A program made the position numbers and the translations under genes. The notes beneath the pieces were generated by a model, which worked only from the letters and a program-made list of their open reading frames with translations, was not told the DNA's origin and made no database searches. Positions 7,111-63,530 of a stretch of DNA of 64,000 bases are shown in pieces (position 1 is the first letter of the stretch; each line of letters starts with the position of its first letter). Origin of the DNA: Hormiphora californensis (lineage: Eukaryota; Animalia; Ctenophora). Location: assembly GCA_020137815.1 (NCBI GenBank), contig CM035353.1, positions 7,378,001 through 7,442,000 of the forward strand, read 5' to 3'.

Positions 7111-7777
7111 ATACCCTGCTAACTTAAATAATGCGCCAGTCCCACTAGCGCGCTCTCAGTAAACAGCCAGTCCAGCGGCAGATTATTTCCCACTGGCAGG
7201 TTATTTGTTTTTAACTCCTACGTAACATTCAAAGTGTGTGTAAATGATCAGTTCTTACTAAAATACAGAGGGAACACTATGTGCAACACCTACACACTAC
7301 ATTGGAGAGAAAGAAAGAACACATTCCGTCAATTACTCTCTCTTTATCTCCCCTTTTGTCTCACTATCTCTTTCTCTGTGTTATTTGTGACATGCCCCTT
7401 ATCAGGCTATTTCTTTCACTCTCTTTCCTTAGCAACTGCTTAGTAACTGTTACCAAACAGTGTACACTCAATTGTGAGGTGTTTTTAACTATTTCTCAGT
7501 TCTCTTTGTGTGTTTTGATTAGTGTTCTCTCTCTTGTTGGTGTGTAATACTTGAAATAAACAACTAAAGCAGGGTATATAACCCATAAACTCTGACCACT
7601 GGCACGTTATAGGTTTAAACCCCTCCGCCTCTCCCTCGGCTCCGCCTCGGGATCGTCGTCGTGATTTAAACCAGTTTATCCGCCAGCGGCGGATAAACTC
7701 CAGCTAACTTCTCCCAGCGGCGCGCTGGGAGAAAGTTATCTGAAATAACGCGCCAGTGGCCAGAGTTTATGCCTCAT
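7111..7777. mobile_element. Non-autonomous DNA element nested in the 3' LTR
   Basis: Absent from the 5' LTR (empty site GTATGTATAAATC); ATATA at both ends; internal inverted repeats ACCCTGCT/AGCAGGGT and CATAAACTCTG.CCACTGGC. Confidence 0.85.
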
Positions 7778-10596
7778 ATAAATCTGAATATTCTGAATAT
7801 CGGTTAGGTGACAAACTAGTGTGAGTTTCAGACTCGCACATACTTCCCTCCCTCTGAGAGAAATGATCATTCCTGAAAAATCGAACATAACACCATGCAA
7901 ATATTCAAATAATAATCAGCTGAGCCGAGTGCCACAATGGCGCTATAAAGTAGTTGATAATCAGCTGAAAAACAACGCGATAATAAGCTGCCAAATGATC
8001 CATGCTCGCTGCACAGCTCTGATACGATCTGGGCAGGCTGCTGCCATGTGAAAACGTGGTCCAAGAATATTGATATGCATGTCATGAAAATGATGCGTAA
8101 AGACTATCTGTGGCTGCACAGATTCTCCCCCCTCTCCAGCGAGAGATAAGGGCCTAGATGCACAAAATGCGCACAAAGACGAACTGACTGAACTCACTGA
8201 ACGGATAAACCAGTACACATTAATTTTATGCTACTAAATGAACTGTATGACAACTCTTTATGGTAAAGATATTTGTATGGCTGCGTTGTTTCACTGGGGC
8301 TGTCCAGTGTTGATTCGAATACGGACGACTTGCTTGTCCAATATTCTCCAGAATAAAACTAGTAAATCATTGCTTTATTCTGTGCCAAGTAACGAGGTTT
8401 TCGGGAGCTTGCCATTTGCATCGGGTCCCAACTAATGAACCGCGACAAAACCAGTAGATATCTCCCACAAGCTGACCGTATAACGGTAGTGCGAACATTC
8501 CAGCAGATTATCTGAATCTCTCAGGTGTAGCTGCCAAACAGTAGAAACGACAAATAACGGGTCAAGTGGTTCAAGGGACGGTCTCGTCGTTGATCTTGTC
8601 AAATCAGATCTTTCTGGATCAGGAGATACAACTTACACACTTCAGCTGTGAAAGTGCCATTCAGCTTCCACAATTTACAGCAGGATCGTGGCGAGTTCTC
8701 CAATCAAGCAGGTCAATAAATTCAGGAATTCACGACTTGTAGCGGGTCGTCATCTTATCTTCGTCAAAGGGCAGAAACGGTTGATCTGGCAACGTCGAAA
8801 TCATCAGTAGAGTTCACAGTCCGGTCTGCAATCTTGTCTGCAATAAGTGAAGTTCAAAACTGCTCTGTGAAACGCAGCTGAGTGCTGCACTCAGTTCAAT
8901 AAAGTTTACACCCAGCGGTGTAATTGTATGAAAGCACACCTGCAAGGGTGGTTTTAATGGGAAGAGCGACAAGTGAGTGTGGCCGCACACAAAAAGAAGT
9001 GTCTGAATTTGTCCTGCTGGGACAGAAATTCAGGGATCTCTGTTACAAAACAATCATTAGAATCCAGCGATCCCAATACAGCAACTATACAAGTAAATAC
9101 TTAAACACTAGACCGACCAGCTGAGTCAGACACATTCAAATACCGGATCAGAGGTCGCTGAACATGATTAGGGCCTAGACAAGTAACCATTATTGTGATA
9201 CACGTGCTGATGTGTAAGTGTGACATGCAGATGTTTCAATCTCAAAATAGCGGCAGCGGTACTAAAAGTGTGTACCAATCGTACACTAGATCAACGTTAA
9301 TCAATTCATCATTAACTTGTACTTTGTTGAGTAAGGGCACCCTTGCTCGACAACTTGTACTTGGATCAGTACAGCAGGTAACTACAACTACAACTGAAGT
9401 TAAAATCGAAGTCACAGGCAGAGTGTCAAAATCGGCAGAAACCACAAAACAAACAGAAATGATTGTAAGAAATCAGAATCATTCTAGATCGGTCTAGATC
9501 AGAAAAAGGTAATTTCCAGCATGCGGCTTACGAATTTTGTAGTACGGCTGGCTCGGTGTAGCTCTTAAGAAACGGACAATCAGGTCGTGAACGTACTCCA
9601 ACTGGGAGCTTCTGCTGCAAGCTTCATCTTCTCTACGGCAGTCTTCTGTCTTCTAGCACTGGGTTTCACGACCAATAAGAGACACTTCATCTGTACTGAT
9701 CGGGACCACGTTAGCAACACACCACCATAAATCTTTGTTGTAATCGTAATCATTCGTGCTACGCCACGTACCATTAATCGGGATTTACGCTATCGGGAAT
9801 GCTGAAACATTCTGTCTGTGTTAGTAATACAAAGCAGTTGAATGGCCGGCCCAATTCAACTGGGTTAGGAGAACCAATCTTTGTAATACTAAACTGGATG
9901 ACCGGATCCGGTCCAATGACTTGGTCATTAAAAACAAACATAACAGCTACCCTGACAACCTGAGAAGGTTAAATAATGATGTGCCTAGGTCTGGTAACCT
10001 GCACCTTACCATGGGTTTAACACGGCTTACCACTGCGTCTCTATTTATGAGCTGTCAAGGGACGTCTTAGAAGCTGCGCCCACACTCTCCAGATGGAGGC
10101 TCGGAACTTGCAGAAGTCCTTCCATGACTCAGTAGCTGACTGGTCACAGGCAATGGTACGAATAGGAGGCGGTGTTGATCCAGATCCATGACCCCTCCTG
10201 TCCCAGGTCAGGGCCTACAATTGGTAGTGGTTCTCTCAATATTATCATCAAATAGGGATCCTTTCGGTATTGCTTGTCGTATTATCAATTCTGTATCTCG
10301 TTGTCAAATCCCTGTATCGGAACTAGTTCTTCTAACAAATATTCTGGTCCCTCTATCTTTCTGCTGGTTGCACTGTAAAACGACTGAGGGGTTAGTGGTT
10401 CAACAGCCCGGGGGCTGAAATGAAAGGGGTAACTAGTTAAGGTTGCCCCGGACAAACAAGGAATAAACAATAACTCAAGAAAAGGCTATACTAAACTATC
10501 AGTTCACCTGTTGCGTTGTCAGGCGAGAACTCATCATCTCCAAAAACAGTGCGTAGATTGTAGATCTCCACATTCCCGTACACACTCTAACTGTAT

Positions 10597-11607
10597 CTAG
10601 TAGTCGTGATCAGAAAAGTAGTTGTAGGCAGGTTCCTGCATCATAGTCAAATTCACCATCGAAGGCTCGAACGGTTGTGCCTCGGGATCCAATGAAGCAC
10701 CAAATTGATCAGGAAAGGGGCTTTGGTTCGGTGGTAAAATCTGCTGTCTGTCCCCAGCGGCAGAGACGTTTAAAACTCGTGCAGGCATTGCTGACACCTC
10801 TATGTTACACAATTCACTGTTCATAATTTGCCTGGATTTGTAGGACCGCTCCAACTGTTTTGCCTCCTGTACTAGTTCGTCAAAACTCATTTTATCCATA
10901 TTTTGAATCAGGCGGACACCAATAACATCAAGTAGTACTCCTGAGATAAGGGCATCCCTCATGTTAGCTTCACGTGCCTTGGTTTCTGCAGGAAACCCGA
11001 TTTCTCCAAGTTTACGAATTCGCTCCACAAACTCTTGTACTGATTCACCGGCCCTCTGCTTGGCTCCTTTGAGAGACAGACGTGCATCTAAAGGTGACAG
11101 TGTGTATGGACCGTCCAAAATCTCCGAAGCAACTGCCTTAAATTCGGCCCATGACTCAGTATCCGAATGATGTCTCCTCTCAAGCCTGCCCTGACAGTCA
11201 AGGTCCAGGTACGTCATGAATGCATCGATTGCTTCTCTGTCTGACAAGTTGGCTGCATTCTTGTATACCTCAAATCCACGGAGGTAGTCACGGATATCCA
11301 TCGCAATAGGATCAAAGGGTTGAGGCTTCCTTCCGACAATCATCTTCACAGGAACCGAAGGGTTACAAGAGGAAGAATTAGGGACGAGCTGGTCCGTTGC
11401 CTGAGAAACAGTAGAGAAAGATGCCTGAATCTCCTCGCGGTATTGGTCTAGGATCTGCATCAGTAGAACTTTATCGTCTGGTTGCACGCTGAGTTTCTTC
11501 TCCGCAAGAATCTGATCGAGCTGAGACTCACTCCACCCAGGATGCGGACCACTGGTCACAGCACCATTTTGTACGACGGGGCTGCTCGTATCAGTGGGAG
11601 TAGACAT
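10597..11607 (-). CDS. gag: Retrotransposon Gag/capsid-like protein, 336 aa (MSTPTD...)
   Basis: Intact ORF directly after the 5' LTR; capsid-like motifs YLRGFE, W.EFK, AKQRAGESVQEFVERIRKL, RDALISG. Confidence 0.85.
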   Translation of the reverse strand: MSTPTDTSSPVVQNGAVTSGPHPGWSESQLDQILAEKKLSVQPDDKVLLMQILDQYREEIQASFSTVSQATDQLVPNSSSCNPSVPVKMIVGRKPQPFDPIAMDIRDYLRGFEVYKNAANLSDREAIDAFMTYLDLDCQGRLERRHHSDTESWAEFKAVASEILDGPYTLSPLDARLSLKGAKQRAGESVQEFVERIRKLGEIGFPAETKAREANMRDALISGVLLDVIGVRLIQNMDKMSFDELVQEAKQLERSYKSRQIMNSELCNIEVSAMPARVLNVSAAGDRQQILPPNQSPFPDQFGASLDPEAQPFEPSMVNLTMMQEPAYNYFSDHDY

Positions 11608-12355
11608 GGTTGTGTGAGTAGTAAAGGACAAAGTTGAAGACAGCTGGATTCTTGGTAGATTGAAGATAAAGAAGTGTAACACACGAGCAAACGTATAGAT
11701 ACTTGTAGAGAATAAGTTCTGAGTCTTGACTCGAAAGCTAAAGTCACGGCTGGTAACTCTTTCTAGAATATCACACACTTCAAAGTCTCTCTCTCTAGAT
11801 TTCTCTTTGCGCTACAAGTAACAGGTCACGTGACCTCGGATCTTGAGGTGAGGCGATCTCCACTCGACTGCTGTAATGAGGGTCCTTAGAGAAGATGACA
11901 CCACAGAACGGTCTCGGCGACCAGATCTACTACATCTAGGCTGCTAGAGGTCTTGGAATGCTGGACTAGAAGGGATTGTAGATACTATCTCTGCGATAGC
12001 TAGATTTAGCTAATTACCCTAGAGCTGCTAGGGGTCTTGATTACGTAGAATTACCCCAGACTGGATAGCAGCGCTGGCTGGCTCACTCTCAATACCACAG
12101 AGATCGAGAGAGAAAGGATTGTAGATACTATCTCTGCGAAGATTTAATACCTAGAGCTGCTAGGGGCTTGTTCAAGTATGTATAAATCTGAATATTCTGA
12201 ATATCGGTTAGGTGACAAACTAGTGTGAGTTTCAGACTCGCACAATAAGACCTGCATATTGAATATGATATTAGGTTTTCCCAGGAATATTGTCCTATTC
12301 GTCATCTTCTCATGAACGTTAATCGACGCTGCCATCTGAAGTTGCCCAGAAACAA

Positions 12356-24222: not shown

Positions 24223-27935
<3,713 letters not shown>

Positions 27936-31174: not shown

Positions 31175-31420
31175 ACTCTCACTCTCTCTCTCACCCTCAT
31201 TGCTACTCATAACAACAATTGCAGGACGGGAGTGCATGATCTCTTTAGAAACTCCACGAATCATCAAAACAACAGATTGTGTAACAATTTTCATTTTTCA
31301 ATAGAGGCAGCATCAATCGTGTGTAAACCTGGTCTGAGAGGGAGACAAATCTAGTTCCCCTACTATTATACTGGGATTAACAAGACAAAGTTAGCTGTAT
31401 TATAACAGTTCACAAACCTA

Positions 31421-32984
31421 CAAGGTGGGCCACGGATTGTTGGTCATGGTTAGCGAGGTGGTGCGTCAAAACGGTGATAGTTGTGAGAATAAAAATTATG
31501 GGAGCACTCTGGATCAATTCCTTGGTAACTTTTTCTATAATTTTTTGTCAAAAATTCAAAAATTCATTTTTCATTCCTTCATTCATTTCTCGTTCATTCA
31601 TGATGTGAGCATCCTAATTTTCCATCATTATGCTATTTTTCTTTGGCTTGAATTTATCTTTCCAATGAGCACCATGAAAATGAAAATGAAGCACCAAGTC
31701 ACTCAGCAGTTGAGAAAATGTTCATGCATGATTTTGGCTCTTTTTGCGATTTTCAAACAGATGTATCACGGCTACCTTTCGTTCAATCTTCTTAAAACTT
31801 TGGGAAAACATTGGATAAGCAAAGATCTTTGCTCACAAGAAAAATCAAGGCCAAAGGTCAAAGTTCATTTTTCATTTTTGTTAGTTCATTCCGTTCATTC
31901 AGGAACCAACATCACTAAAGTGATGAAAAGGTTTGTGTTTTGTTTGGCCCATGTCCTGCAATGACAGAGAGGTGTAATAGCGTGTTTCCGGGCTAGTTTG
32001 TGGGTGTCCATGTGATCATGATGATATCTGACACCTTTTCTGAGCCATGATTAAGGGATTTTCTCAAACTCAAGCATGTAACTTGGTTTTTCTGCGATTA
32101 GTACCGTGCAGAAATGTTATGAGATCTCATAACAACTCAAAAATGATGATTAGCTCAATGAAATGAGTTGATTTATGATGTAATTGTTCGTTTCGTTCAA
32201 TTTGACATCGGTTTTAATCTTTTCAATCAGAAATCAACTCATTTCATTGAGCTAATCATCATTTTTGATGTGTTATGAGATCTCATAACATTGCTGCACG
32301 GTACTAATCGCAGAAAAACCAAGTTACATGCTTGAATTTGAGAAAATCCCTTAATTATGGCTCAGAAAAGGTGTCAGATATCATCATGATCACATGGACA
32401 TCCACAAACTAGCCCGGAAACATGTTATTACACCTCTCTGTCATTGCAGGACATGGGCCAAACAAAACCCAAACCTTTTCATCACTTTAGGGATGTTGGT
32501 TCCTGAATGAACGGAATGAACTAACAAAAATGAAAAATGAACTTTGACCTTTGGCCTTGATTTTTCTTGTGAGCAAAGATCTTTGCTTATCCAATGTTTT
32601 CCCAAAGTTTTAAGAAGATTGAACGAAAGGTAGCCGTGATACATCTGTTTGAAAATCGCAAAAAGAGCCAAAATCATGCATGAACATTTTCTCAACTGCT
32701 GAGTGACTTGGTGCTTCATTTTCATTTTCATGGTGCTCATTGGAAAGATAAATTCAAGCCAAAGAAAAATAGCATAATGATGGAAAATTAGGATGCTCAC
32801 ATCATGAATGAACGAGAAATGAATGAAGGAATGAAAAATGAATTTTCGAATTTTTGACAAAAAATTATGGAAAAAGTTACCAAGGAATTGATCCAGAGTG
32901 CTCCCATAATTTTTATTCTCACAACTATCACCGTTTTGACGCACCACCTCGCTAACCATGACCAACAATCCGTGGCCCACCTTG
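31421..32984. mobile_element. Foldback non-autonomous Tc1/mariner-type element with ~754-bp arms and a ~56-bp spacer
   Basis: TA|CAAGGTGGGCCA...TGGCCCACCTTG|TA; arms 31421-32174 and 32231-32984 nearly identical. Confidence 0.93.
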
Positions 32985-34215
32985 TATATAGCAGCATAGG
33001 TAGCTCTGTATAATAGTACTCGGTAAATATAAGAGGAGCCTGGAGCATAGAACAATTCAGAAGTAGGAAGGCCTTTCCGAATTCCAAGCTTTATACAGCT
33101 CGGATCGGATTTATGTGATCCCATACATACACCTATCAAGTGTCAAAATGCCCCTCAAGTTCCATTCAGTTTTCAATGTAGAGCTGATGTTAGTGTAACG
33201 GCACACGGGGGAGTTTGTGAGAAAATAACAACGCAACCAGTGATTGTTTATCTAACATCTTACATACACACATGCACCGTACCAACTTTACCATGGGATA
33301 TGATACATGCACTGTACCGTGGGGCAATGGACATGTTATACGGTCGCTTGTAGTGGGAAAAAAGTAATGGAAAACGGAGATACAGTAAGACGACGCACAA
33401 CCGTGACCAATCAGGGCGCTATAAACACATGCACTTTTGCCGCGCGTTATGCAACGTGCGCGTCCCGTTACTGTATTTCCATTACGGTAATACGACTACA
33501 AGCAGCTCTGTTATACATGGGATTGTCTCTATCATCAGGGGAACCAGGGGAATGGGCCGATGGGGAGGGGGGGGGGGGTAATTGAATTACCTAGGACAGC
33601 TGCAGGGTTTGATGATACAGCTGGCATTGCAGAGTGGTGATATCGAGGATTTTCACATCTTGTGATCTTTCATGACTTCTTGCGGCGTGGGTCCTGTGGA
33701 GATAGTTTGATAATTCTAAACAGCTATACAAGATCAAGATGATCTAATACTATACAGTATACACACCGTTTTTTAGAGCACATCCATTTTGAGATTCAGA
33801 TTGTCCAGATTGTTAGGTATATAACTCATCAGTATGACAGTTTGGAAACCTTGTATCATGGTACCTGTGTCCTGGTTGAAGTGAGGAAATCTGGAGCTCA
33901 TGGGACATTGCTAAAACAAGCTGTAAGGATTAACATTGTTCTGTCTGGTCAAACACGTAACATCAAAAAGCTATAAATAACGACGGTTATAAAAGTTTTC
34001 AACACCAAATCAAGGCTATAAAGGATAATAAAAAGTACGCTAACAGAAATAATAACTTAATCAATTTACATATATTCGTGTGCTTGATGGTTGAATTATC
34101 AAAATCAGCCCATAAAAATCATTAATTCCTCGTGCTTCAAAGTTCAACGGATTATCCAAATAATTATGGGATTATCTTGATATGTAGTTGACAAAAAGTT
34201 CAGCTAGAACTATAT

Positions 34216-34591: not shown

Positions 34592-35660
34592 TCAATAAAG
34601 CATCACCAGCACACCATGTGTTGTAGGGCAGATCTATCCCCTCCTCCTCCAAAGGGTTTATCAACCAAGTACTGAACGTAGAGAAACATGTCTTCATCGT
34701 GGTGAGTCTAGATGGGGGAAGTTGCAATAAATATCGCGGTCAAAAACTGGTAATTTCCTCTATCGGGGAAAGATTATTTTCCCGGTAAATTGGGTTTCCG
34801 GTAAATCGGGGCCCGACTGTACAAACTTACTTCGTAGATATCGTTAACCACTGTTGTTATCGTTTCTTCAGAACTTAAACTTCCTAGACAAGAATTCATT
34901 AGCCACGGAGTTTTGATAAAAAACCATGGACCGCCAGACCCCTTTTTGGTTCGCAAATTGTTTCGGCAGCGCCAGCCAGATGACCCATGGATTTTTCATG
35001 ACAACGAACAACAAATAATTGTGCCAGTGAGATCTTACCGAATAGAAGTTTTAACGATTCAGATTCCTCCAAATGAAAACCTTGGTCGCCCATCATTAAC
35101 TTTACTCTGCATAAAAACTGTCCCACTGAAAGGAGTAATAAAAAGTTACAGTCGGACCCCGATTTACCGTAATTAGCAAGTCGATAGGTTAATTCTAGTG
35201 GTGGCAATTAGTTAATACTGGTAACTAGCAGGAACCGACCGAATCAGGAAATACTGGTCCCTGATTGGCTGATAACCAGTCACGTGACCTACATAACGAG
35301 TTCTGATTGGTTGTTTACTTGTGTCAGTCGGTTACTGGTAACCAGAAATAAAGTTCGTGTTATGTGACAAATCCTCACCTGTCCATTCTTTGGGGATGGC
35401 CATCTTGTGAGACTTCAGTGCAATCTGTCGACTTCTCCTTGAGTGTCCAGGTTCAATTATTATCTGTAAAATTAGAAATCAGCTATAACTTAGTTCACAT
35501 GTGATGGTAATATTTGATTGATTTCATAGTAATAATCCCTAACGATATTTCTCTAACATACGGGAAGGTAGCTGGGTCTGTTTCTCCTCACTGAATCAGC
35601 TGAGCTCTTCCTGTACTCAAAGGGTCGGGAATTCTTGTACGAGCTACTCCATGCCGACAT
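34592..35660 (-). CDS. Divergent ATG8/GABARAP-LC3 family paralog (exons 35660-35562, 35463-35379, 35125-35039, 34883-34831, 34707-34592)
   Basis: MSAWSSSYKNSRPFEYRKSSADSVRRNRPSYLP-IIIEPGH...HKMAIPKEWT-VGQFLCRVK...LKLLF-GSLS...DIYE-THHDEDMFLYVQYLVDKPFG-GGGDRSALQHMVLVMLY aligns collinearly with ATG8; three intron positions shared with the neighbouring GABARAP. Confidence 0.85.
35229..35337. mobile_element. hAT-like 109-bp MITE in intron 2 of the ATG8 paralog
   Basis: TIRs CAGGAACCGAC/GTCGGTTACTG; 8-bp TSD GTAACTAG/GTAACCAG. Confidence 0.8.
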
Positions 35661-36101
35661 GCTAACTGTTAAAAGAGGGGGTTTTCCAAAAACAAAGAAA
35701 CGGTTTTAACATATCAACATTGGTGTTGAATCATAATAAGAGAGGTAAATTTACAGACGGCAGACGCGTTTACAAGATATTATATACCGGTATAAATCAC
35801 ACACGATGTCCAAAGAAGTTATCCGGGTACATGGTCAGTTTTTAATAAAAGCAACAAAAATTCTGCCCCGCGAGAAAAGCTGATTCTTTAGAATTCAAAT
35901 CTACCTGTATTTTCATAATAGTCTTTAATTATTTAATCCATCTAAATATGTCCCATATATTACACAAAGTCGACCGATTACTGTTATACAGGAGTGATTA
36001 AAAGAATTAAGATTTTAAATCTGATACACACACACAACAAACAAACAAACAAACACTTATTAACAGCAATCAATCAAATTGTCCTGACCAATTAGTAGGT
36101 T

Positions 36102-37488
<1,387 letters not shown>

Positions 37489-37949
37489 CTATTAAAAAGT
37501 CGAATTTAAAACTATTTGGGTCCTAAGGTATTTCCTGGTGATATGTGTTATTTTTGCTGCCTGCGTAAAAAGATCAGTGATGTCACTCACGAGGGAGGAC
37601 ATTTAGAAACAACATCGACTTTACAGAAATGTAGATCTTCAATAGATCACAGATCTCTTATACTCCAGTTGCGATCTGGAAACTGACACAAGTTTCCAGC
37701 TGGGAGATTCCCGATAAACCATGCTGCACGTCATCTGTGCAATGCGTGACTAAATTTCCATCTGAAATCAATTGACGATCCATTATCAGCAGTGCGAACG
37801 GGAACTAGCGTCTGAAAACTGGAAAAAACAGTTTCCAAATCTGGAACTGGACCCTTAAAAAATAGAAAAGCTCGGCGACCTGGATAAATCCAAATTTCAG
37901 GGTGCTGATATCCCTTTCTATGGCGTTTCCCCGATACCCGGTACCCGGT

Positions 37950-39800
37950 TTGGTTTGGTTTGGTTTGGACCACTCATCTGGGACTGTAAACAGTCACACA
38001 GCCAAGTCTCGCCGAACAGGCGAGACAGCATAGTGCCGGATCATCCTTTCGGAATCACCACCAGATCGTCTTCTGTCTGTCGTCGGTGAAAGAATATGAA
38101 ATCATACTTCTAGATCTTAAAATTAAATTGTTCTCAGTAACAATCAATCAAAGCTAATCAAATCAAATCATTATATAATATTCTCATCAATAATAAAATA
38201 AGGTGTACATGTACAATATATAAACATATGAAACATTAACAAATTATGAATGAATCATGAATGTGTTTGGAATGAAATCATTAACGAATCTTAAATAAAA
38301 ACATTGAATGAATGAATTGTGATCAACATAAAATTAGAAGTGAAACAACAGTTTACGCAATTTTTGAGCGACTCTGGTGATTTTCTTTTATTGAGCAAAT
38401 ACACAGTTTAGTGCGATGGTGCGTGATAGTGGATTTTAAATGAGCGATCAAGAATTTAGTGAATGAAATGCGGTAATTGACTAGAAATACTAGTGAACTG
38501 TCGAAATGAAAAACATTGGTTTTTACACGGTTTCGAGTGGTTGTGGATGATGATGGATTTGAGCGAGCGTCTCGACCTATGTCTGCTCTAATTAGTCATG
38601 TGATTAAAACTTGAATTGCGACCGTGAAAGGGCTGTATATGTGTGATATTGAGCGAGTATTGGTGAGCGGTGTATCAACAACAAACAGTACGGACTGACA
38701 AACTTACGACCTTGATAGATGTGATGGGTACTAACTGTGACGTCTTGGTGATGAGATGAGAGGTATATCTTTTACAGTAGAGGTAAAGATACACGAGAAC
38801 GATCAAACACAAATAAGGGCGGGGCAGATAAGACAATTTGTGAGTTGTTACACGCGATAAGCGACTTAGTGCACCAAAACACAAGGATAGGGGAATGGGG
38901 ATTGGGGTAGGGCTTAAAGAAAACGACGAGGTATCAGGTGTAAAGGCCTTTCGGCTAAAATGCCATCTTCAGTACATCCTACAACATAGAGAGTTAATAC
39001 AACAGGTCACAAAACACTGCCACACACACACACAGACCACCAAGAGAATATAAAACAAAATCAACAAAAGGACCCTGCTAAAAACGACGCGGTTACCGTA
39101 CCACTGCAATACGGTTTAGCCCAAACACAAGGATTGTCTCTGTAGCGAGGTATAAAAGAAACTGCTCTAAATTGGGAAGGGCCAGGGTGGGGGAGGTGGG
39201 TGGGGCGGAGGGGAGGGGCGGAGGGGGTGGGAGGTGGAAAGTAGAAGCTTGAGGCCAGTACAAACTTGCCGAAATAGACGTGTGTCGGGACATTTACTAA
39301 ACAAGGCCGGGGGTGGGGGTAGTGTTTACTGAAATTGGGTAGTGGGGAGAAGAAGAACTGGCAATTTGTGTGCGGTGATAGTCCAAAATGGCAGCGGAAG
39401 CGAGAGTAAAAACAAAGACAATGTAAGGAGACAAGTAGTGACAATGTGGCATATTTGATCTTGTGTGAATTCTTCGGTCGCAAAGTTATTTCTCAGTTCA
39501 ATTGCAAGATTATTTTAATTAAATTTAAATTTTGAAATATGAACTTGAAATTTTGGGAGTACTTTGGACAGCATATTTACACTTTAGAAAGGTTGTAGTA
39601 GAAGCTTGAGGCCAGTACAAACTTGCCGAAATAGACGTGTGTCGGGACATTTACTAAACAAGGCCGGGGGTGGGGGTAGTGTTTACTGAAATTGGGTAGT
39701 GGGGAGAAGAAGAACTGGCAATTTGTGTGCGGTGATAGTCCAAAATGGCAGCGGAAGCGAGAGTAAAAACAAAGACAATGTAAGGAGACAAGTAGTGACC
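37950..39800 (-). mobile_element. Non-coding retroposon, ~1.85 kb, with (CCAAA)4 3' tail
   Basis: 14-bp TSD ACCCGGTACCCGGT (37936-37949, 39801-39814); 202-bp direct repeats 39241-39442 and 39598-39799; structured 3' end; no long ORF. Confidence 0.7.
38935..38980 (-). ncRNA. Minimal type I hammerhead ribozyme (Penelope-like class)
   Basis: AGGATGTA-CTGAAGA-T-GGC-ATTTTA-GCC-GAAA-GGCC-TT-TACACCT: conserved core, stem II, palindromic stem III and stem I. Confidence 0.75.
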
Positions 39801-40000
39801 ACCCGGTACCCGGTACCCGGTACATAGTTCGTAAGAGGCGAGTGTATTAAAGCTACTCTGTATTAAATCCAAATTCCAAGAATATGGTAGGGTTGCTAAA
39901 TAGTGTTTAACAGTCCCGTTTGACTACATATTCTAAACATTCGTAAAACAATTTAGTACTCGAGTAGTTGTAGCAGCAGGTACGTCATGAAGAAAACATA

Positions 40001-40626
40001 TTTTTTCCCTGCCCGGGTGAATACATTCACCCGGATGATGTTTTTAGCACGCACGTGCTAAAAAGATCATTCAGGGTTTAGAAATTAGCAGATCGTAGGG
40101 GTTAACTAAATGTCCGTCCGTCCGTCACGGACAACGCCTAACAACAAGTCTGCTCCTTCATAAAACTTTCATCTCACGCTTCGTTGATTCAACAAAGGAA
40201 ATGATTAACACACATTGTGGCACACAATTATTCGCTGATAGCACTTCCCACTATCACCTGAAATCACTTTGGGCGCCCTACAGCCATGCCATGAAGTGGT
40301 AGAACGTCTTCCAAGCATGAAACTACTATCACATTAGTGACTCGAGTTGAGATGCGGTTAAAGTTGAAGCACTTGGTAACCAACTGGAGTCTCCCAAGCA
40401 ACTGCCTTGGTTGTCATAACAAATGTCTTGGTTGCCATAGCAACTGCGTTGGTTACCATAGCAACTAACCTAATTACCTTAGTAACCAACATCGCATCAG
40501 CCTAAAAATGCTCTTTGAGCACAAAATTCATCAGGAAATCCAGTTTTGAAGCTTATTCATCAATTTTAAATCCATTTGTGGCAGGGAAACGCCGCATTAT
40601 GAACACATAATGCAATAATTCTTGTT
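40001..40626 (+). mobile_element. Helentron-associated DINE-1/HINE-like element
   Basis: T-run start; subTIRs TTCCCTGCC/GGCAGGGAA; (GTCC)n microsatellite; 3' hairpin GCATTATG-AACA-CATAATGC; CTTGTT end. Confidence 0.8.
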
Positions 40627-41775
40627 ATAAATCACCCATCTCTATTAACACACTGTATTCCTCTGATCAATCAAGGAGTTACAAGACCTCTAGGATATTG
40701 AACTGTAGCAAACGCGGCAGTCCCATGATATTTACTAGACACCAGAGGGGTTTGCTGCACCCCCTGCCGCTTTGTGACCTATTCAACATGTAAACTGATA
40801 TTTATATCAACTCCTGACACCACGTGATATGATACTTTTGACTCGGTTTCACTGCTTCTGGCCTAACAAGAGGCAAGAGCGAAACCGAATTGGCAAACGT
40901 TGCTGGCAGCGCGGGATAAGGCAGCGCTTTTCAAGAAACCGAACGGAAAGATATTTTTTTTTAAAAAAAACACAAAAAATCTGAACGAGATTTTTCCTTG
41001 GACGCGCGCACTCTAACCTGCATGCGTGTTACAAAAGGAATGAGGGCGCCTTACAGCTTGAGTTTCAGACGTGATATGTCCACAACATGATATGGAAATA
41101 TAAAAGAGTTGGGCAAACCCAGTGACAGTTTCTGTTTTTGAACGTTACACATTAGAAACCAATCACAGGAACAGTGGTTTGGCCCGTATGAACGTACTCT
41201 TCATTCAATGTGAATGTTGAATAGCAAAACAAATACATAGTAATGCAAATGTAACTCGAGACTTTGGGTTTTAGAAATAAATATCAGAACTCATCAGAAT
41301 CTTTCCATTTCAATTTCGGTAGATAAGAGGGGTATGGCAGCCCTTACAACTTGTAAAACTTCACTCACGTGCCGATATATTCCCTAAATATAAGTTCAGA
41401 ATAATCTTTTCACTTCGCTCCTAGATTACAAATTGCCATAAAATATTGAAGAAAGATTTCACAGATCACTTTCTGCTCATACAAAAAACACTGAAATCAT
41501 CGCCCCGCGCCCGATAGGCCACTTCTTTTTCTTCTCCTTCGGATAGGACACACTCTCAACTTTGAGCAACACAATTGGTTAGTACTAAAACACGTTTCCA
41601 ACGCTTTCTCTCGTTCACTCTTTCATACCACATTAAAATTAGTTACTAAAAACGATTTGAAATCGCAACCCTTGCTGCATATTAGCACAAAAACATAAAA
41701 AAACAAACACGCTGAAACGATAATCAGCTTCACTCTTCGTTACTACTTTCTCTCTCGTCAACACGTCTCCTCCTC

Positions 41776-42854
41776 CTACTTCAAGATCTCTTCAAACTCG
41801 TTCAGTAAGTCATCCTCATCCTCGAATAGTAGGGAGACATCATCACGTTTAGTATGAGAGGTGGGGGCTGCATCTAGAGCAGCGTTCAACAGTTCCAACT
41901 CCCGGTCAAAGTCGTCTAGTTCAGTGTTGGTGGTACTGTAGGAAATGGGATGTTAGATTTGGGGTTTTAGAGTGGTTATGTAGGAAATGGGATGTTAGAT
42001 TTGGGGTTTTAGAGTGGTTATGTAGGAGTGGGATGATAGATATTGGGGATTAGAGGATTATAGGTTAGAGAAAACTGAAAAGCCAAAAAAAGTGTAGATA
42101 ATGATACGTACCTTTGAGGGGTAGGAACAGAGGTTGTAGTTTGTGGAATGGGATTGCAGACAGCAGATTTAGTAGCTCCAGACACCATTGTGGTGGTCGG
42201 TGCTGTATTGGGTTGTTGAGTGGGCTTCACTGCTTTCTTTATCCTGATCTTCTTGACAACCCTCGGTTTAACTACAGCTCGTTTATTGGTAGTTGGTTTA
42301 GGGGCAGGTGCCACTTTGTTTTCTGGTTTTGTTATGGGTTGTGTGACAGGTGGTGGAGCGCTATTTGCCCGAACTGACTTTAGATCCACGACATGTTTTG
42401 TTCTTATTACAGTGGTGTTGGTTTTGGGTTCCTCTTGTTGTGGTTTACTAGCGAATGGGTTCAATCCCTTCACCTTGGGTTCCTCTTGCTGCGGTTTACT
42501 AGCGAATGGGTTTAGTCCCTTCACCTAGAAGGGGGTGGGGGTTAAATTTAGGTGCCGGCAGGCACCTCCGACCCGAAGAAAACAGAAAAAACGAAAAAAA
42601 AAATTTTTGCCCCTGCACCAAATCCAAAAAGTGACGGCCCTATTTAGGTGCCGGCAGGCACCTCCGACCCGAAGAAAACAGAAAAAACGAAAGAAAAAAA
42701 AAATTTTGCCCCTGCACCAAATCCAAAAAGCCGGCCCTATTTAGGTGCCGGCAGGCACCTCCGACCCGAAGAAAACAGAAAAAAACGAAGAAAAAAAAAT
42801 TTTTGCCCCTGCACCAAATCCAAAAAGCCGGCCCTATATATACAAACGTAGGTC

Positions 42855-42887
<33 letters not shown>

Positions 42888-44393
42888 GGCAAATTTCAGG
42901 CAGCGATTGTGGCCACATTTTTTGAGATATCGACCTGAAATTTTGTAGGCGTGTTCTAGTAGTATAACTACGTGTCATAACGTGGCCGGATTTTTGATTT
43001 TTTGCCTAATTAATTAATTATAGGTAATTAAAAAGTAGCCCCTGCACCGTGCCCCTGAGCATGGGGTGTTCTGTCCCCTGGGCATTGCCCCTGAGCCGAA
43101 ATTATCTCCCGATCTGCTTGAAATATCGACTTGAAACTTTGTAGGAATGCTCTTCAAGCATAAAAAATGATCTACAAAAAGTTAGAATAGTCAAAATTAA
43201 GTAATCAATGAGTTATAGGCATGCAAAAATGGACATTTCTGGTGCCCCTGAATTTTGCCCCCGAGCATTTGAAAAAACTGCCCCTGGGCAATTTTAAAAT
43301 TCAAATTGTGGCCACACTGTTTGACATATCGATCTAAAACTTTGTAGGCATGTTCTAGTGGTATAACTAAGAGTCACCACGGAGCCTGATTTTTGATTTT
43401 TTACTTAATTAATTAATTATAAGCAATTAAAATTTTAAAATTGCCCTCGCACTAACAAAAGTGGCCCAGGGGCACCTGAGCCGCAATTATCTCCCGATCT
43501 GCTTGAAATATCGACTTGAAACTTTGTAGGAATGCTCTTCAAGCATATAGAAAGGTCTACAAAAGGTGGGAATATTCAAAATTAATTATCCAATTAATTA
43601 TAAGCAATTAAAAAATGGACATTTTTCTGGTGCCCCTGAGCATTGCCCCTGAGCATTTGAAAATATTTTCCGTTCTGCTATAAATAACGGCCTAAAATTT
43701 TGCAGTAATGTAGTTCAAGCATATAGAAAGGTCTACAAAAAATGGGAATATTCAAAATTGATTATCAAATTAATTATAAGCAATTAAAAAAATGTGCAGT
43801 GGCAGTGCAGGGGCAAAAAAATTAAGCATATATATATGGCGGGAAAATATTTTGGCGGGAAACCGAAAAAGCCCAATAAGCCAAGAACGGGGTGGGGCCA
43901 AGGTCTGGCCCACTAGCTTTTGATCACCTCATCGAGCCCGATCGAACGCGACCAATGTCGACCTCCCACGACGACCTAAACCCCTAATCCCACGTGGTGC
44001 CAGCCAACCGCCAGCCAAACGGAAAAATCTAGTGATCCTCTATCAGCTGGTATCAAAATCTAAGCTCTAAGTGACCAGGAACTGGCATTATTAGTGCTAA
44101 TTGGCGATAACGTCATAAATCACATAATTACGACTAATTAGTGAACCGGGGGTGGTAGAGACCTGTGGGATGGTACTTTGGACTTTTTATAGAGTCCCTA
44201 ATCATATCAGAAAGTCAAATTTAAAATTCCAGACCCAACTTCCCACAACCGACCCTACTATGTATAATAAACAGGCCGCTGCGCATCAAAAAATATTTTA
44301 ACAGCTTGAAGGTTGCTGTTTCGACGAATCTCCCAACTTCGGGTCGGACGAGGGGAAGCTTGCCTTTTGCGATCATATATACAAACGTAGGTC

Positions 44394-44425
<32 letters not shown>

Positions 44426-45934
44426 TGGGGGGGGGGTGGCAAATTTCAGGCAGCGATTGTGGCCACATTTTTTGAGATATCGACCTGAAATTTTGTAGGC
44501 GTGTTCTAGTAGTATAACTACGTGTCATAACGTGGCCGGATTTTTGATTTTTTGCCTAATTAATTAATTATAGGTAATTAAAAAGTAGCCCCTGCACCGT
44601 GCCCCTGAGCATGGGGTGTTCTGTCCCCTGGGCATTGCCCCTGAGCCGAAATTATCTCCCGATCTGCTTGAAATATCGACTTGAAACTTTGTAGGAATGC
44701 TCTTCAAGCATAAAAAATGATCTACAAAAAGTTAGAATAGTCAAAATTAAGTAATCAATGAGTTATAGGCATGCAAAAATGGACATTTCTGGTGCCCCTG
44801 AATTTTGCCCCCGAGCATTTGAAAAAACTGCCCCTGGGCAATTTTAAAATTCAAATTGTGGCCACACTGTTTGACATATCGATCTAAAACTTTGTAGGCA
44901 TGTTCTAGTGGTATAACTAAGAGTCACCACGGAGCCTGATTTTTGATTTTTTACTTAATTAATTAATTATAAGCAATTAAAATTTTAAAATTGCCCTCGC
45001 ACTAACAAAAGTGGCCCAGGGGCACCTGAGTCGCAATTATCTCCCGATCTGCTTGAAATATCGACTTGAAACTTTGTAGGAATGCTCTTCAAGCATATAG
45101 AAAGGTCTACAAAAGGTGGGAATATTCAAAATTAAGTAATCAATGAGTTATAAGCAATTAAAAAATGGACATTTTTATGGTGCCCCTGAGCATTGCCCCT
45201 GAGCATTTGAAAATATTTTCCGTTCTGCTATAAATAACGGCCTAAAATTTTGCAGTAATGTAGTTCAAGCATATAGAAAGGTCTACAAAAAGTGGGAATA
45301 TTCAAAATTGATTATCAAATTAATTATAAGCAATTAAAAAAATGTGCAGTGGCAGTGCAGGGGCAAAAAAAATAAAGCATATATATGGCGGGAAAATATT
45401 TTGGCGGGAAACCGAAAAAGCCCAATAAGCCAAGAACGGGGTGGGGCCAAGGTCTGGCCCACTAGCTTTTGATCACCTCATCGAGCCCGATCGAACGCGA
45501 TGTCGACCTCCCACGACAACCTAAACCCCTAATCCCACGTGGTGCCAGCCAACCGCCAGCCAAACGGAAAAATCTAGTGATCCTCTATCAGCTGGTATCA
45601 AAATCTAAGCTCTAAGTGACCAGGAACTGGCATTATTAGTGCTAATTGGCGATAACGTCATAAATCACATAATTACGACTAATTAGTGAACCGGGGGTGG
45701 TAGAGACCTGTGGGATGGTACTTTGGACTTTTTATAGAGTCCCTAATCATATCAGAAAGTCAAATTTAAAATTCCAAACCCAACTTCCCACAACCGACCC
45801 TACTATAATAAACAGGCCGCCGCGCATCAAAAAATATTTTAACAGCCTGAAGGTTGCTGTTTCGACGAATCTCCCAACTTCGGGTCGGACGAGGGGAAGC
45901 TTGCCTTTTGCGATCATATATACAAACGTAGGTC

Positions 45935-45967
<33 letters not shown>

Positions 45968-47566
45968 GGGCAAATTTCAGGCAGCGATTGTGGCCACATT
46001 TTTTGAGATATCGACCTGAAATTTTGTAGGCGTGTTCTAGTAGTATAACTACGTGTCATAACGTGGCCGGATTTTTGATTTTTTGCCTAATTAATTAATT
46101 ATAGGTAATTAAAAAGTAGCCCCTGCACCGTGCCCCTGAGCATGGGGTGTTCTGTCCCCTGGGCATTGCCCCTGAGCCGAAATTATCTCCCGATCTGCTT
46201 GAAATATCGACTTGAAACTTTGTAGGAATGCTCTTCAAGCATAAAAAATGATCTACAAAAAGTTAGAATAGTCAAAATTAAGTAATCAATGAGTTATAGG
46301 CATGCAAAAATGGACATTTCTGGTGCCCCTGAATTTTGCCCCCGAGCATTTGAAAAAACTGCCCCTGGGCAATTTTAAAATTCAAATTGTGGCCACACTG
46401 TTTGACATATCGATCTAAAACTTTGTAGGTATGTTCTAGTGGTATAACTAAGAGTCACCACGGAGCCTGATTTTTGATTTTTTACTTAATTAATTAATTA
46501 TAAGCAATTAAAATTTTAAAATTGCCCTCGCACTAACAAAAGTGGCCCAGGGGCACCTGAGTCGCAATTATCTCCCGATCTGCTTGAAATATCGACTTGA
46601 AACTTTGTAGGAATGCTCTTCAAGCATATAGAAAGGTCTACAAAAGGTGGGAATATTCAAAATTAAGTAATCAATGAGTTATAAGCAATTAAAAAATGGA
46701 CATTTTTATGGTGCCCCTGAGCATTGCCCCTGAGCATTTGAAAATATTTTCCGTTCTGCTATAAATATCGACTTGAAACTTTGTAGGAATGCTCTTCAAG
46801 CATATAGAAAGGTCTACAAAAAGTGGGAATATTCAAAATTAACTATCCAATTAATTATAAGCAATTAAAAAAATGTGCAGTGGCAGTGCAGGGGCAAAAA
46901 AATAAAGCATATATATGGCGGGAAAATATTTTGGCGGGAAACCGAAAAAGCCCAATAAGCCAAGAACGGGGTGGGGCCAAGGTCTGGCCCACTAGCTTTT
47001 GATCACCTCATCGAGCCCGATCGAACGCGACCAATGTCGACCTCCCACGACGACCTAAACCCCTAATCCCATGTGGTGCCAGCCAACCGCCAGCCAAACG
47101 GAAAAATCTAGTGATCCTCTATCAGCTGGTATCAAAATCTAAGCTCTAAGTGACCAGGAACTGGCATTATTAGTGCTAATTGGCGATAACGTCATAAATC
47201 ACATAATTACGACTAATTAGTGAACCGGGGGTGGTAGAGACCTGTGGGATGGTACTTTGGACTTTTTATAGAGTCCCTAATCATATCAGAAAGTCAAATT
47301 TAAAATTCCAGACCCAACTTCCCACAACCGACCCTACTATAATAAACAGGCCGCCGCGCATCAAAAAATATTTTAACAGCCTGAAGGTTGCTGTTTCGAC
47401 AAATCTCCCAACTTCGGGTCGGACGAGGGGAAGCTTGCCTTTTGCGATCTAATTTAGGTGCCGGCAGGCACCTCCGACCCGAAGAAAACAGAAAAAACGA
47501 AAAAAACAAAAATTTTGCCCCTGCACCAAATCCAAAAAGCCGGCCCTATATATACAAACGTAGGTC

Positions 47567-47599
<33 letters not shown>

Positions 47600-50240
47600 G
47601 GGCAAATTTCAGGCAGCGATTGTGGCCACATTTTTTGAGATATCGACCTGAAATTTTGTAGGCGTGTTCTAGTAGTATAACTACGTGTCATAACGTGGCC
47701 GGATTTTTGATTTTTTGCCTAATTAATTAATTATAGGTAATTAAAAAGTAGCCCCTGCACCGTGCCCCTGAGCATGGGGTGTTCTGTCCCCTGGGCATTG
47801 CCCCTGAGCCGAAATTATCTCCCGATCTGCTTGAAATATCGACTTGAAACTTTGTAGGAATGCTCTTCAAGCATAAAAAATGATCTACAAAAAGTTAGAA
47901 TAGTCAAAATTAAGTAATCAATGAGTTATAGGCATGCAAAAATGGACATTTCTGGTGCCCCTGAATTTTGCCCCCGAGCATTTGAAAAAACTGCCCCTGG
48001 GCAATTTTAAAATTCAAACTGTGGCCACACTGTTTGACATATCGATCTAAAACTTTGTAGGCATGTTCTAGTGGTATAACTAAGAGTCACCACGGAGCCT
48101 GATTTTTGATTTTTTACTTAACTAATTAATTATAAGCAATTAAAATTTTAAAATTGCCCCCGCACTAACAAAAGTGGCCCAGGGGCACCTGAGTCGCAAT
48201 TATCTCCCGATCTGCTTGAAATATCGACTTGAAACTTTGTAGGAATGCTCTTCAAGCATATAGAAAGGTCTACAAAAGGTGGGAATATTCAAAATTAAGT
48301 AATCAATGAGTTATAAGCAATTAAAAAATGGACATTTTTATGGTGCCCCTGAGCATTGCCCCTGAGCATTTGAAAATATTTTCCGTTCTGCTATAAATAT
48401 CGACTTGAAACTTTGTAGGAATGCTCTTCAAGCATATAGAAAGGTCTACAAAAAGTGGGAATATTCAAAATTGATTATCAAATTAATTATAAGCAATTAA
48501 AAAAATGTGCAGTGGCAGTGCAGGGGCAAAAAATAAAGCATATATATGGCGGGAAAATATTTTGGCGGGAAACCGAAAAAGCCCAATAAGCCAAGAACGG
48601 GGTGGGGCCAAGGTCTGGCCCACTAGCTTTTGATCACCTCATCGAGCCCGATCGAACGCGACCAATGTCGACCTCCCACGACGACCTAAACCCCTAATCC
48701 CACGTGGTGCCAGCCAACCGCCAGCCAAACGGAAAAATCTAGTGATCCTCTATCAGCTGGTATCAAAATCTAAGCTCTAAGTGACCAGGAACTGGCATTA
48801 TTAGTGCTAATTGGCGATAACGTCATAAATTACATAATTACGACTAATTAGTGAACCGGGGGTGGTAGAGACCTGTGGGATGGTACTTTGGACTTTTTAT
48901 AGAGTCCCTAATCATATCAGAAAGTCAAATTTAAAATTCCAGACCCAACTTCCCACAACCGACCCTACTATAATAAACAGGCCGCCGCGCATCAAAAAAT
49001 ATTTTAACAGCCTGAAGGTTGCTGTTTCGACGAATCTCCCAACTTCGGGTCGGACGAGGGGAAGCTTGCCTTTTGCGATCATAGTTTAACATCCAGAGGA
49101 CATACCTTGACGGGTAATTCATTGAACTTATTTAAAGTGTGGTTTTGGAGCAGTAGAGGGGGTGAATAGTGAGACTTTACTTACCTGTTTACTGGTATTT
49201 GCAGACTGCTGCACAGCACGTAGAGCGGCACTAAACACCTGTTGTGCTGGTGTCTCCGAATTGTACACTATTTTTCGTTTAGGTTTGCGTTTTATAACAG
49301 CCTCCTCAGCAGTTTTCTCTGTTGTATCTTGTTTTGTGTCTTCAGTCGCTTCAGGTGGGTTGGTAGTGGTAGTGGCGTCCTGGGAAGGATGGTTGGGTGT
49401 TAGTAACAAACTACACTTTGTGTTAACAATGATAGAGTATCAACTCCCCAGACCCTAGTACCAACTCCTTGTTATGTTCTAACTAGGTCTAGCTAGGCAA
49501 CCAACTCCCAGTACTAACCTCAAAGCAGAACTCATCACACTTTTCAGGGGTCTTCAAACACTCTGCTTCCTCTTGTTCTGGCGTCCCAGGGGTCGATAAA
49601 TCATCTGAAAATAGGGAATTATGATGATGAATGTGAGCCATTTCCTGCTGCTTCCTAATTTAGCATCACATGACAGCCCTCACCATCATGACTGATATAC
49701 AATGCGCGGCGCGCTGTCTTTCAAATGCTAACAACAGTTGGATTAGCAAAGAGAGCAGCGAGCATTTCGAGCAATCGCCACACAGAAAGATGAGAATTTG
49801 TTCATTCAGGAATCTGTTGAAAATAACCAAACAACACGGAACAACCTAACAAAGTTAATACACACCTTCCCCTCCCTCCCCAGCAGCTTGACGTTCCAGC
49901 TTCCTCAACTTTTTAGATTCCCTCCGATCCCGTCTCTCCTGTTTTTCCTGTCTTCGCAGCTGTTTTAACCTTCTACGTTCCATCTTTAACAGCTTCTTTT
50001 CGTTCGACTGTGCAAGGGAATGTGAAGTTTTAGTATTGGAAAATCCAGTACAATTCTTCCCTTAATTAGTGGTCATAACTGAATCACTTTTGAAGAAAGA
50101 ATTTAATTTATTCCATTTTCGGAGCGCCTACCTTTTTATTGTTGATGGTGAATGTTAGACTGGGTTCAGCTGACGGTTCAGATAGGACCTCCCTTTCATC
50201 TTCATCATCTTCCCCGCTGTACCTGTTGGTAGTCTGGTTA

Positions 50241-62288: not shown

Positions 62289-63530
62289 ATATGTCCTCAG
62301 GATGTTGAGACCGCCCGTAGGGGCAGGCAGAAGTTATGACGGAGAAACTTAATACCTCTGATGCAGATGTCGATCCACTGGAATGCTGGGATTTGTCGAT
62401 GATGGAAAAACTTCGTTGTGCAGTAGAGAACGTTTTTTATATCAAGAACGGGCTCAAACAACCAAGTGAACAACAGGTTGATGGAGTATTGTCCAAGTTA
62501 TTGGATTCTAGTTTGTATGATGATCCTGAGCAGTATATGGAGGACGCACTGCCGAAAGACTCCGAAATGAGAAAGTATAATGTTGATCGTTTCATGGCTT
62601 TCACCGAGAACCTCTCTCGTCATATTTTTCGGATAGTGAGAGAAATAGGACCAGTTATGAAGGAGAAACGTCTGTATGCAACTGCCCGAATGAAAGAACG
62701 CATGGAACTAGTGGAATGTAATCAGAAGCTGAAGGAGGTACAAGAAGAGCTTGGCACTTTTAAGGAAGAAATCGACAAACATCGGGTATCAAGGATTGAA
62801 CTGCAAGAGAAGCTGATTGAAGCACAAAATACTTTGATTGAAGTACAAGGTCGGAAACTTAGTTCAGTGTCAGAGTCTGTTCAGAAGCATTTGCAGGGCT
62901 ACTCCAAGGTGCTTGTACAGAATTGCTCTGCAGCTATTGCACCATCCCGCCTCCAAGCAGCATTGAAGAAAGCGACTGTACCCCATCCAAGTACAACCGC
63001 GGAAGAAGCAACTCTTGATCGCAAGTTGAATTTGGTTATATTTGGGCTGCCAGAAACTACGGCAAGGGCTACTGAGCATGAAGTTCAGGATATCTTTGGA
63101 GAGCTCAATGAAAAACCAGTCATATCTTCTACAAAGCGTATTGGCGAAAAGACTGATAACCGACCGAGACCAGTAATTGTTACACTTGAAAGGAGGGAAA
63201 CTTTGTTACAACTTCTAAGAAAAGCAAAACAGCTCCGAGATTCAGAGAAATTCTCCTCGGTGTTTCTCTCCCCCGACCTAACACCGGAGGAGCAGCGAGA
63301 GCGGAAAACTCTCGTTGATACAGTGAAAGGACTGAGGCGAGACAATCCGAATGGACGATACTGGGTTAGCAGGGGGGTAATTAAATGTGGCTGACCTGCT
63401 ACATGTAATTTGTACTCTAAAGAGACTTCAAAAGGAACCTTATGACTATCAATTTAGCCCACAAAAAGGGGCAGTATATGTTGTATTTTATCCAATGTAT
63501 ACATTTTAGATTTAATAATAATAATAATAA
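62251..63530 (+). mobile_element. ORF1-only non-LTR retroelement (SL + 5' UTR + ORF1 + 3' UTR + (TAA)6)
   Basis: 9-bp TSD TCTGGGATT (62242-62250, 63531-63539); (TAA)6 tail at 63513-63530; no ORF2. Confidence 0.85.
62336..63394 (+). CDS. LINE ORF1p-like protein, 352 aa (coiled coil + RRM + CTD; CR1/L2/L1 type)
   Basis: Intronless intact ORF; RKLNLVIFGLPE, KRIGEK...RPRPVIVTL, LLRKAKQLR, VFLSPDLTPEEQRERKTL. Confidence 0.88.
   Translation: MTEKLNTSDADVDPLECWDLSMMEKLRCAVENVFYIKNGLKQPSEQQVDGVLSKLLDSSLYDDPEQYMEDALPKDSEMRKYNVDRFMAFTENLSRHIFRIVREIGPVMKEKRLYATARMKERMELVECNQKLKEVQEELGTFKEEIDKHRVSRIELQEKLIEAQNTLIEVQGRKLSSVSESVQKHLQGYSKVLVQNCSAAIAPSRLQAALKKATVPHPSTTAEEATLDRKLNLVIFGLPETTARATEHEVQDIFGELNEKPVISSTKRIGEKTDNRPRPVIVTLERRETLLQLLRKAKQLRDSEKFSSVFLSPDLTPEEQRERKTLVDTVKGLRRDNPNGRYWVSRGVIKCG

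Follow-up and report, generated by a model that had tools for sequence, protein, structure and literature searches.

The window examined here, the whole 64-kb stretch of ctenophore DNA, harbours a non-coding, retroposon-like insertion of ~1.85 kb on its minus strand (37936..39814, flanking repeats included), which we regard, with a probability of roughly 0.6, as a young composite non-autonomous retroposon whose single RNA was copied by a partner, likely of LINE type, and in which a hammerhead ribozyme travels by way of a Penelope-type fragment. The hammerhead is most likely a separately inserted, nested fragment of this type, a passenger in the element, and the insertion is likely young and polymorphic, a composite of known kinds of parts. 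The non-coding, tail-bearing insertion with a Penelope-type minimal hammerhead described in the initial annotation proved real, as the lack of a long ORF, the tail and the motif confirm; its picture of one integrated 'ribozyme-driven hybrid' gives way to a hammerhead segment that is nested, has a flanking repeat of its own and is missing from relatives of the element. In the 5' to 3' order of the minus strand, the features are as follows.

39801..39823, minus strand: 5' flank, (ACCGGGT)3.3, containing the outer 14-nt duplication copy 39801-39814
39597..39799, minus strand: repeat A1, 203 nt, identical to A2, at the 5' end of the copy; possibly a template-switch re-copy of A2
39443..39596, minus strand: AT-rich spacer B; contig depth ~30-37 times single-locus, uncovered in organism B runs
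39240..39442, minus strand: repeat A2, containing a GCCATTTT motif; bin depth ~100-200 times single-locus in organism A, uncovered in organism B runs
39135..39239, minus strand: C-rich stretch together with the 5' portion of the host 'core' repeat; adjoins 38888 in hammerhead-less relatives
39124..39134, minus strand: inner flanking repeat, 5' copy, 11 nt exact (14/15 as 39120-39134)
38889..39123, minus strand: probable nested 235-nt Penelope-type fragment with the hammerhead, multi-copy in both organisms
38935..38981, minus strand: minimal type I hammerhead motif with palindromic helix III AGGCCU; predicted cut between 38943 and 38942
38878..38888, minus strand: inner flanking repeat, 3' copy (14/15 as 38874-38888)
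38660..38877, minus strand: remainder of the host 'core' repeat on its 3' side, at very high abundance in both organisms; the left limit is an estimate from depth bins and loose ends
38087..38659, minus strand: AT-rich middle; near-identical contigs at ~10-12 times single-locus depth in S1, patchy cover in S2 and little cover in organism B
37969..38086, minus strand: 3' module with predicted hairpins, a very abundant dispersed repeat in both organisms
37947..37968, minus strand: (CCAAA)4.4 tail, its last ACC overlapping target sequence; tail variants in loose ends at 37973
37930..37949, minus strand: 3' flank, with the outer duplication copy 37936-37949 and a degenerate 7-mer
37390..37479, minus strand: first coding exon of the adjacent gene, an ATG8-family member (one exon matches in Pfam at E 1.4e-12)

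The longest stop-to-stop frame of the element measures 143 aa and has no Met. ARAGORN found 0 tRNA genes within the window and Rfam none in 36000-42000, a search that decayed tRNA-like Pol III heads would escape, and prokaryote and viral collections gave 0 exact matches, in 4 of 4 scans, for the 3' module, the core and the hammerhead. The last 86 nt of the 3' module have a predicted fold z of -2.5, and the module is likely the end recognised by the partner reverse transcriptase; its head-to-tail arrangement in X5 (37947-38087, joint from 38087 to 37947) suggests a discrete SINE-like unit of ~140 nt. The search of the window for an autonomous partner that shares the 3' end of the element returned none. 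One candidate, a 357-aa frame at 62321-63394 which we take to resemble a LINE ORF1 from remembered motifs, was rejected, having no match to the element and neither a long ORF nor an ORF2 behind it; its three best Atlas clusters, all unnamed, are commonest in Ctenophora.

The start of the ATG8-family gene, presumably GABARAP, lies 468 nt beyond the tail on the same strand as the element, in agreement with the ~470 bp reported initially. The one run guessed as RNA yielded only a single, unrelated contig over the ATG8 exon. A YY1-like signal, which had been proposed for the repeats, dissolves into background, its core GCCATNTT occurring 8 times in the window, not above chance. Within the ATG8 gene region, perfect 22-nt terminal inverted repeats spaced 1.1 kb apart (35147-36294) likely delimit a MITE.

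Part of the stretch is shared by 20 of 22 public sequencing runs, from organism A (two samples), organism B and marine metagenomes; in the samples of organism A half, or a third, of its words or more are present. The copy analysis draws on the contigs of 8 of the 22 runs, whose summed depth is a rough guide and gives no copy number. Runs X1-X3 represent one sample (S1), possibly the source of the window, and the single-locus depth of the flanks was taken as 33 in X1 (aligned at 90% likeness) and 40 in X2 (at 80%). Relative to these values, depth reaches ~390 (X1) and ~530 (X2) in the 3' module, peaks at 500 and 960 in the core, and amounts to 97 and 197 in repeat A, 30 and 37 in spacer B and 11 and 12 in the middle; a contig bridging the middle and the core has ~11 in both runs. 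The parts thus differ up to ~50- to 80-fold, and in organism B the 3' module, the core and the hammerhead segment are covered, with A, B and most of the middle uncovered, a missing cover that is weak evidence. Because depth and cover in organism B differ by part, the element is a mosaic, and the caveat of the initial annotation, that the segments might come from unrelated repeat families, largely holds. In X1 and X2, contigs of near-identical sequence cover 38087-38867 at depths of 10.6-15 times single-locus, and the depth at 39155 is similar in X1. This sub-part of at least 780 nt is young, repeated about ten times in S1 and patchy in S2. Its depth (~11-15 times single-locus) may reflect multiple dispersed copies, and it is from depth that we infer that the 1.85-kb element was amplified in its entirety; the contigs include no full copy, and none is listed that spans the whole element or bridges core, insert and A2. 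A contig of X2 that ends near 38115 (depth 537) appears to link the 3' module to the middle.

At its 5' end the element carries a direct repeat (39240-39442 and 39597-39799; spacing 357), whose copies are 100% identical, as had been stated, at a length of 203 rather than 202 nt. Their description as duplicated 5' monomers is doubtful. One contig of X1 has a different sequence upstream of spacer B, parting after 4 letters shared with the end of A, and there is a loose end at 39600 in the same run. The full identity of A1 and A2 and the parting at a 4-nt microhomology favour, on this one contig, a one-off template switch as the origin of A1 over a monomer array. A miniature LTR element was considered for A-B-A and rejected: TG...CA ends are absent, and the arrangement spans only the 5' third of the element.

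The outer flanks match at 14 of 14 positions (37936-37949 and 39801-39814), or at 19 of 20 when extended, and both lie within 7-mer tandems, so that the length of the duplication is ambiguous. Of 20000 positions outside known arrays, 54 carry a 14-mer that is found again 0.2-5 kb away; with arrays included, the number is 2147 of 20000. Of the 6 occurrences of the rare flank 7-mer on that strand of the 64 kb, 5 are at the two ends of the element. On the forward strand the tail reads (GGTTT)4.4 at 37947-37968, with a 3-nt microhomology to the target, which bears out the (CCAAA)4 tail recorded earlier. The 14-bp target site duplication of the initial annotation stands as a flanking repeat, and the outer duplication is not clean.

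As to other alleles, a contig of depth 389 in X6 (second individual) matches 39815-39958 and continues leftward with 91 other letters; two left-flank alleles of X6 sum to a depth of 379, and the bin at the 5' junction has no further cover. This X6 allele has one 7-mer and likely no element. The array, which an earlier caveat took for a possible pre-existing repeat, was therefore not pre-existing in that allele. In X1, a single-locus contig agrees with the left flank as far as 37929, where 98 other letters take over; therefore ~100 nt or more have been lost or replaced at the target. The contigs of the runs analysed hold no clean joint of an empty allele; a loss of target sequence or a separate indel accompanies the allele of the window, and the true duplication may measure 7 to 14 nt or more. 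Immediately beside the 3' flank, a 37-nt piece of a repeat common to both organisms (37893-37929) ends exactly where the flank starts. Beyond the 5' flank, 39997-40300 is an extremely abundant repeat that the two organisms share, its bin depth in X1 reaching 63,000; another haplotype diverges at 39996, so that this is likely a further polymorphic insertion.

These ends bear on a reading that we consider rather unlikely, namely that the 3' module, the core, the Penelope fragment and the A/B repeat are independent insertions that piled up at one locus, which was then multiplied by duplication at the DNA level, and that the tail and the flanking 7-mers belong to the short 3' module alone or to repair. 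The depth contrast among the parts would be expected of such a pile-up, as would the unclean outer duplication, the want of a contig across the element, and the 3' module standing alone at many single-copy loci, once head-to-tail. However, in the bins just outside both flanking repeats, 37770-37843 and 39860-39951, depth is down to the single-locus level, the rare 7-mer is concentrated at the two ends, S2 has no 5' junction, and all oriented parts point one way. With regard to LINE-mobilised retroposons, the tail and the 14-nt repeat are present, and contigs of other alleles carry one 7-mer and additional sequence. SVA-like composite retroposons are young non-coding mosaics with a tail and a flanking duplication, likely moved in trans. 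The likeness of the present element to them is one of organisation, and a simple-repeat tail takes the place of their poly(A).

The hammerhead motif qualifies by its sequence as a minimal hammerhead of Penelope type, self-cleavage being predicted. On the minus strand it comprises C3 at 38972, CUGAAGA with one extra U after A9, a stem II of GGC/GCC (3 bp, 6-nt loop), and then GAAA, GGCC, U16.1 and U17 at 38943; stem I consists of 4 bp, a bulge and 3-4 bp, and the triplet CUU precedes the predicted cut. The cut after GGCCUU that had been put forward is upheld by this layout as a prediction. The CUGANGA and GAAA...UH boxes with stems I and II, the extra nucleotide between 9 and 10.1, G10.1-C11.1 and the palindrome of 15.2-16.2 plus loop 3 are all present. 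The long helix II of 6-8 bp given for Penelope-like minimal hammerheads in the available part of PMC4209133 is here reduced to 3 bp, as it is in 18 unrelated loci that were selected by our own pattern.

With a descriptor composed after the motif had been seen, this motif is the only match in the 64-kb window. Dinucleotide shuffles of the element gave any hammerhead match in 6 of 3000 cases and a palindromic one in 1 of 3000, and shuffled windows held on average 0.03 matches (100 shuffles). In the hammerhead search proposed earlier, Rfam gave no hammerhead match up to E 10 and no ribozyme family in 36000-42000. A second hammerhead in the 3' module was rejected, since CAGAUGAG breaks the core and the descriptor finds none there. 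Folding predicts stems I and II for the bare motif. The predicted probability of stem I is at most 0.01 for the complete element, for the insert and for 7 of 7 prefixes of growing length, and because this applies to all contexts beyond the bare motif, the motif is predicted to be misfolded in context. The self-duplex of the palindrome has a predicted energy of -9.1 kcal/mol.

The evidence for nesting comes from the borders of the hammerhead segment. In a sensitive self-alignment, 14 of 15 letters match between 39120-39134 and 38874-38888, 11 of them exactly, and hammerhead-less relatives in both organisms keep one copy of this inner 11-nt repeat. Contigs that leave the window at 38888 into 39135-like sequence number 6 in X5 and 8 in X14 (loose ends). 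Joints that skip 254-277 nt across the segment connect 38869 to 39124 (X2, X3), 38863 to 39123 (X5), and 38887 to 39165 and 38888 to 39156 (X14), their sides being short, with 22-36 letters only; in one joint the 21 intervening letters equal the length of 39135-39155 in the window. In organism B the segment is deep (673 in X11, 232 in X14) from 38897 onwards in both runs, with a deep contig at 38897-39034 that has 6 other letters. The 3' end of the insert lies 55 nt past the hammerhead motif.

For analogues, metagenomes were scanned with a hammerhead pattern, which itself fixes the shared letters; it returned 31 loci, none with homology beyond the motif, bar a 31-nt match in 1 of the 31. An unrelated family of 18 dispersed, 5'-truncated hammerhead repeats (L001, L003, L004, L007, L009-L012, L014, L016, L018, L021, L022, L024, L028-L031) has U at position 17 in 18/18, a 10-nt palindrome in 17/18 and variable 5' starts; its members share a 3' end, which lies 54-59 nt past the motif in 15 of the 16 loci that permit measurement, and flanking repeats of 12-13 nt occur at that end in 3/18. 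A second family comprises L005, L006, L008, L015, L017, L020 and L026, and in L008 and L015 the motif stands between long inverted repeats. In L017 its neighbour is an inverted ORF that matches RVT_1 weakly (E 0.011, below the cut-off) and contains the DKG motif, which is named for Penelope reverse transcriptases in the accessible portion of PMC8557442.

The 11-nt repeat of its own, the hammerhead-less relatives and a 3' end at 55 nt, as in the unrelated family, together argue that the ribozyme most likely arrived nested. By this analogy, the nested piece likely resembles a truncated Penelope end, and the inner repeat fits an independent repeat with its own target duplication. The direction of the change is unpolarised, and the hammerhead-less forms may alternatively be deletions between the two short 11-nt repeats.

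Among known systems, most minimal motifs of Penelope type are single dispersed copies of truncated elements, and in vitro the monomer showed no cleavage and dimers low cleavage, according to the part of PMC4209133 at hand. The present motif shares with the minimal hammerheads and solo truncated copies of that text the extra base, G10.1-C11.1, the palindrome and a short helix I, and likewise the dispersed single occurrence and the placement near the 3' end of its own fragment. Unlike Penelope-like elements, the insertion has no Penelope ORF and no pair of pseudo-LTRs, and the fragment is nested in another repeat; the RT plus GIY-YIG ORF of an autonomous Penelope-like element is absent, and the direct repeats contain no hammerhead.

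It is very improbable, in our view, that a Penelope enzyme moved the whole insertion as a non-autonomous derivative of Penelope in which A-B-A forms a partial tandem resembling pseudo-LTRs. Such a derivative would account for the type of the hammerhead, and PMC8557442 describes partial tandems in non-autonomous Penelope-like elements, but the duplicated part here is 5' and without a hammerhead, whereas pseudo-LTRs repeat the hammerhead-bearing 3' end, and the motif lies ~970 nt from the tail. Repeat A was also tried, and rejected, as a decayed hammerhead unit: it aligns weakly to the hammerhead segment, with a score reached by 11 of 500 shuffles.

With non-LTR retrozymes (PMC7229834; bioRxiv 10.64898/2026.07.22.740005, both available in part) the element has in common its non-coding nature, a type I hammerhead and a flanking duplication of more than 4 bp, and its 235-246-nt hammerhead unit falls within their range of 170-400 nt. 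By contrast, the retrozymes of PMC7229834 are, in the text available, tandem units each with a hammerhead, whereas here a single motif occurs and no such tandem. Because hammerhead-bearing tandem units are absent, the element is not a retrozyme as defined in the available text of these two sources, nor is it an autonomous Penelope element. The schistosome Sm-alpha and Sj-alpha SINE-like retroposons (excerpts of PMC6765202 and PMC8490949) are likewise non-autonomous and carry a hammerhead, but they consist of short Pol III tandem units, whereas the present element is 1.85 kb long and modular, with no tRNA gene detected. Among the publications listed by the literature searches, none described this family, a (CCAAA)n tail or a nested hammerhead composite, and none was dedicated to ctenophore hammerheads.

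For the composite retroposon that we favour, the following course would account for the present copy. A 5'-truncated Penelope-type end (hammerhead plus 55 nt) would have inserted into the abundant core repeat, and the locus between the 5' A/B repeats and the tail-bearing 3' module would have been transcribed as a single RNA, starting from a putative promoter in or upstream of the A/B repeats and running through the core, the nested fragment and the middle into the 3' module. Target-primed reverse transcription may then have inserted this RNA about ten times in one lineage, a presumably expressed partner enzyme, likely of LINE type, recognising the hairpin-rich 3' module and priming at the (CCAAA)n tail. 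At the present site the enzyme would have jumped back once at the 4-nt microhomology and re-copied A. A lone minimal hammerhead would require a dimer to cut and is predicted to misfold, so that the full-length RNA would survive. Indeed, since ~850 nt upstream of the predicted cut site are present in this copy, its template RNA was uncut; one motif, the predicted misfolding and the uncut template together are why we treat the ribozyme as a passenger.

The comparison of organisms A and B points partly in another direction. The hammerhead core has no listed change, and the changes listed in the motif of organism B are one in loop II (38960) and a one-sided G-U to A-U change (38935), which by itself is no covariation. 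The unchanged core and the G-U to A-U change suggest selection somewhere and count against a passenger role; selection in the parent Penelope-type family would explain this conservation.

That a captured or native hammerhead functions within the composite, with sister transcripts pairing through AGGCCU, cutting at 38943/38942 and freeing a mobile tail-bearing RNA of ~1 kb, as in the hybrid of the initial annotation, is quite unlikely. Such activity would be in keeping with the presence of all four minimal-hammerhead hallmarks of PMC4209133, the predicted palindrome duplex, the unaltered core, a contig of X6 that starts at 38943, and a depth of the segment near that of the middle in X1 and X3. 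However, the element has one motif, the copy spans the cut site, misfolding is predicted and hammerhead-less relatives are far more abundant; moreover, contig starts are graph branches, not RNA ends. The narrower proposal that a LINE-mobilised composite puts a captured Penelope hammerhead to use, the transcripts of its copies pairing by the palindrome, cutting each other and freeing the tail-bearing 1-kb RNA, appears clearly improbable. An active ribozyme in the composite would constitute a new link between Penelope elements and LINE-type mobilisation; if copies cut each other, ribozyme activity would rise with copy number and join two retroelement classes.

As a passenger-bearing composite, the element exemplifies a retroposon formed by nesting, likely a polymorphic insertion that precedes an autophagy gene by 468 nt. 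With it the range of Penelope-type hammerheads would reach the ctenophores, a lineage without a dedicated report among the publications listed. The idea that hammerheads may simply parasitise retroelements is raised in the available pages of PMC8557442; here, sister forms with and without the motif coexist in the same genomes and are open to comparison.

Further repeats occur elsewhere in the window. At 6496-12184, two direct repeats of ~615 nt (96.6% alike, starting with TGTA) and a 404-aa minus-strand frame (Retrotrans_gag, E 0.056) likely represent the relic of an LTR retrotransposon with a gag-like frame. A near-perfect palindrome of 1.57 kb, with arms 96.6% alike, occupies 31419-32986. 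Over 42739-49088, a ~1.55-kb unit with poly-G tracts and internal subrepeats of ~400 nt is repeated about four times in tandem, the copies being 97-99% identical; three 97-nt units precede them, and a 24-nt minisatellite of ~54 copies is found at 24370-25659.
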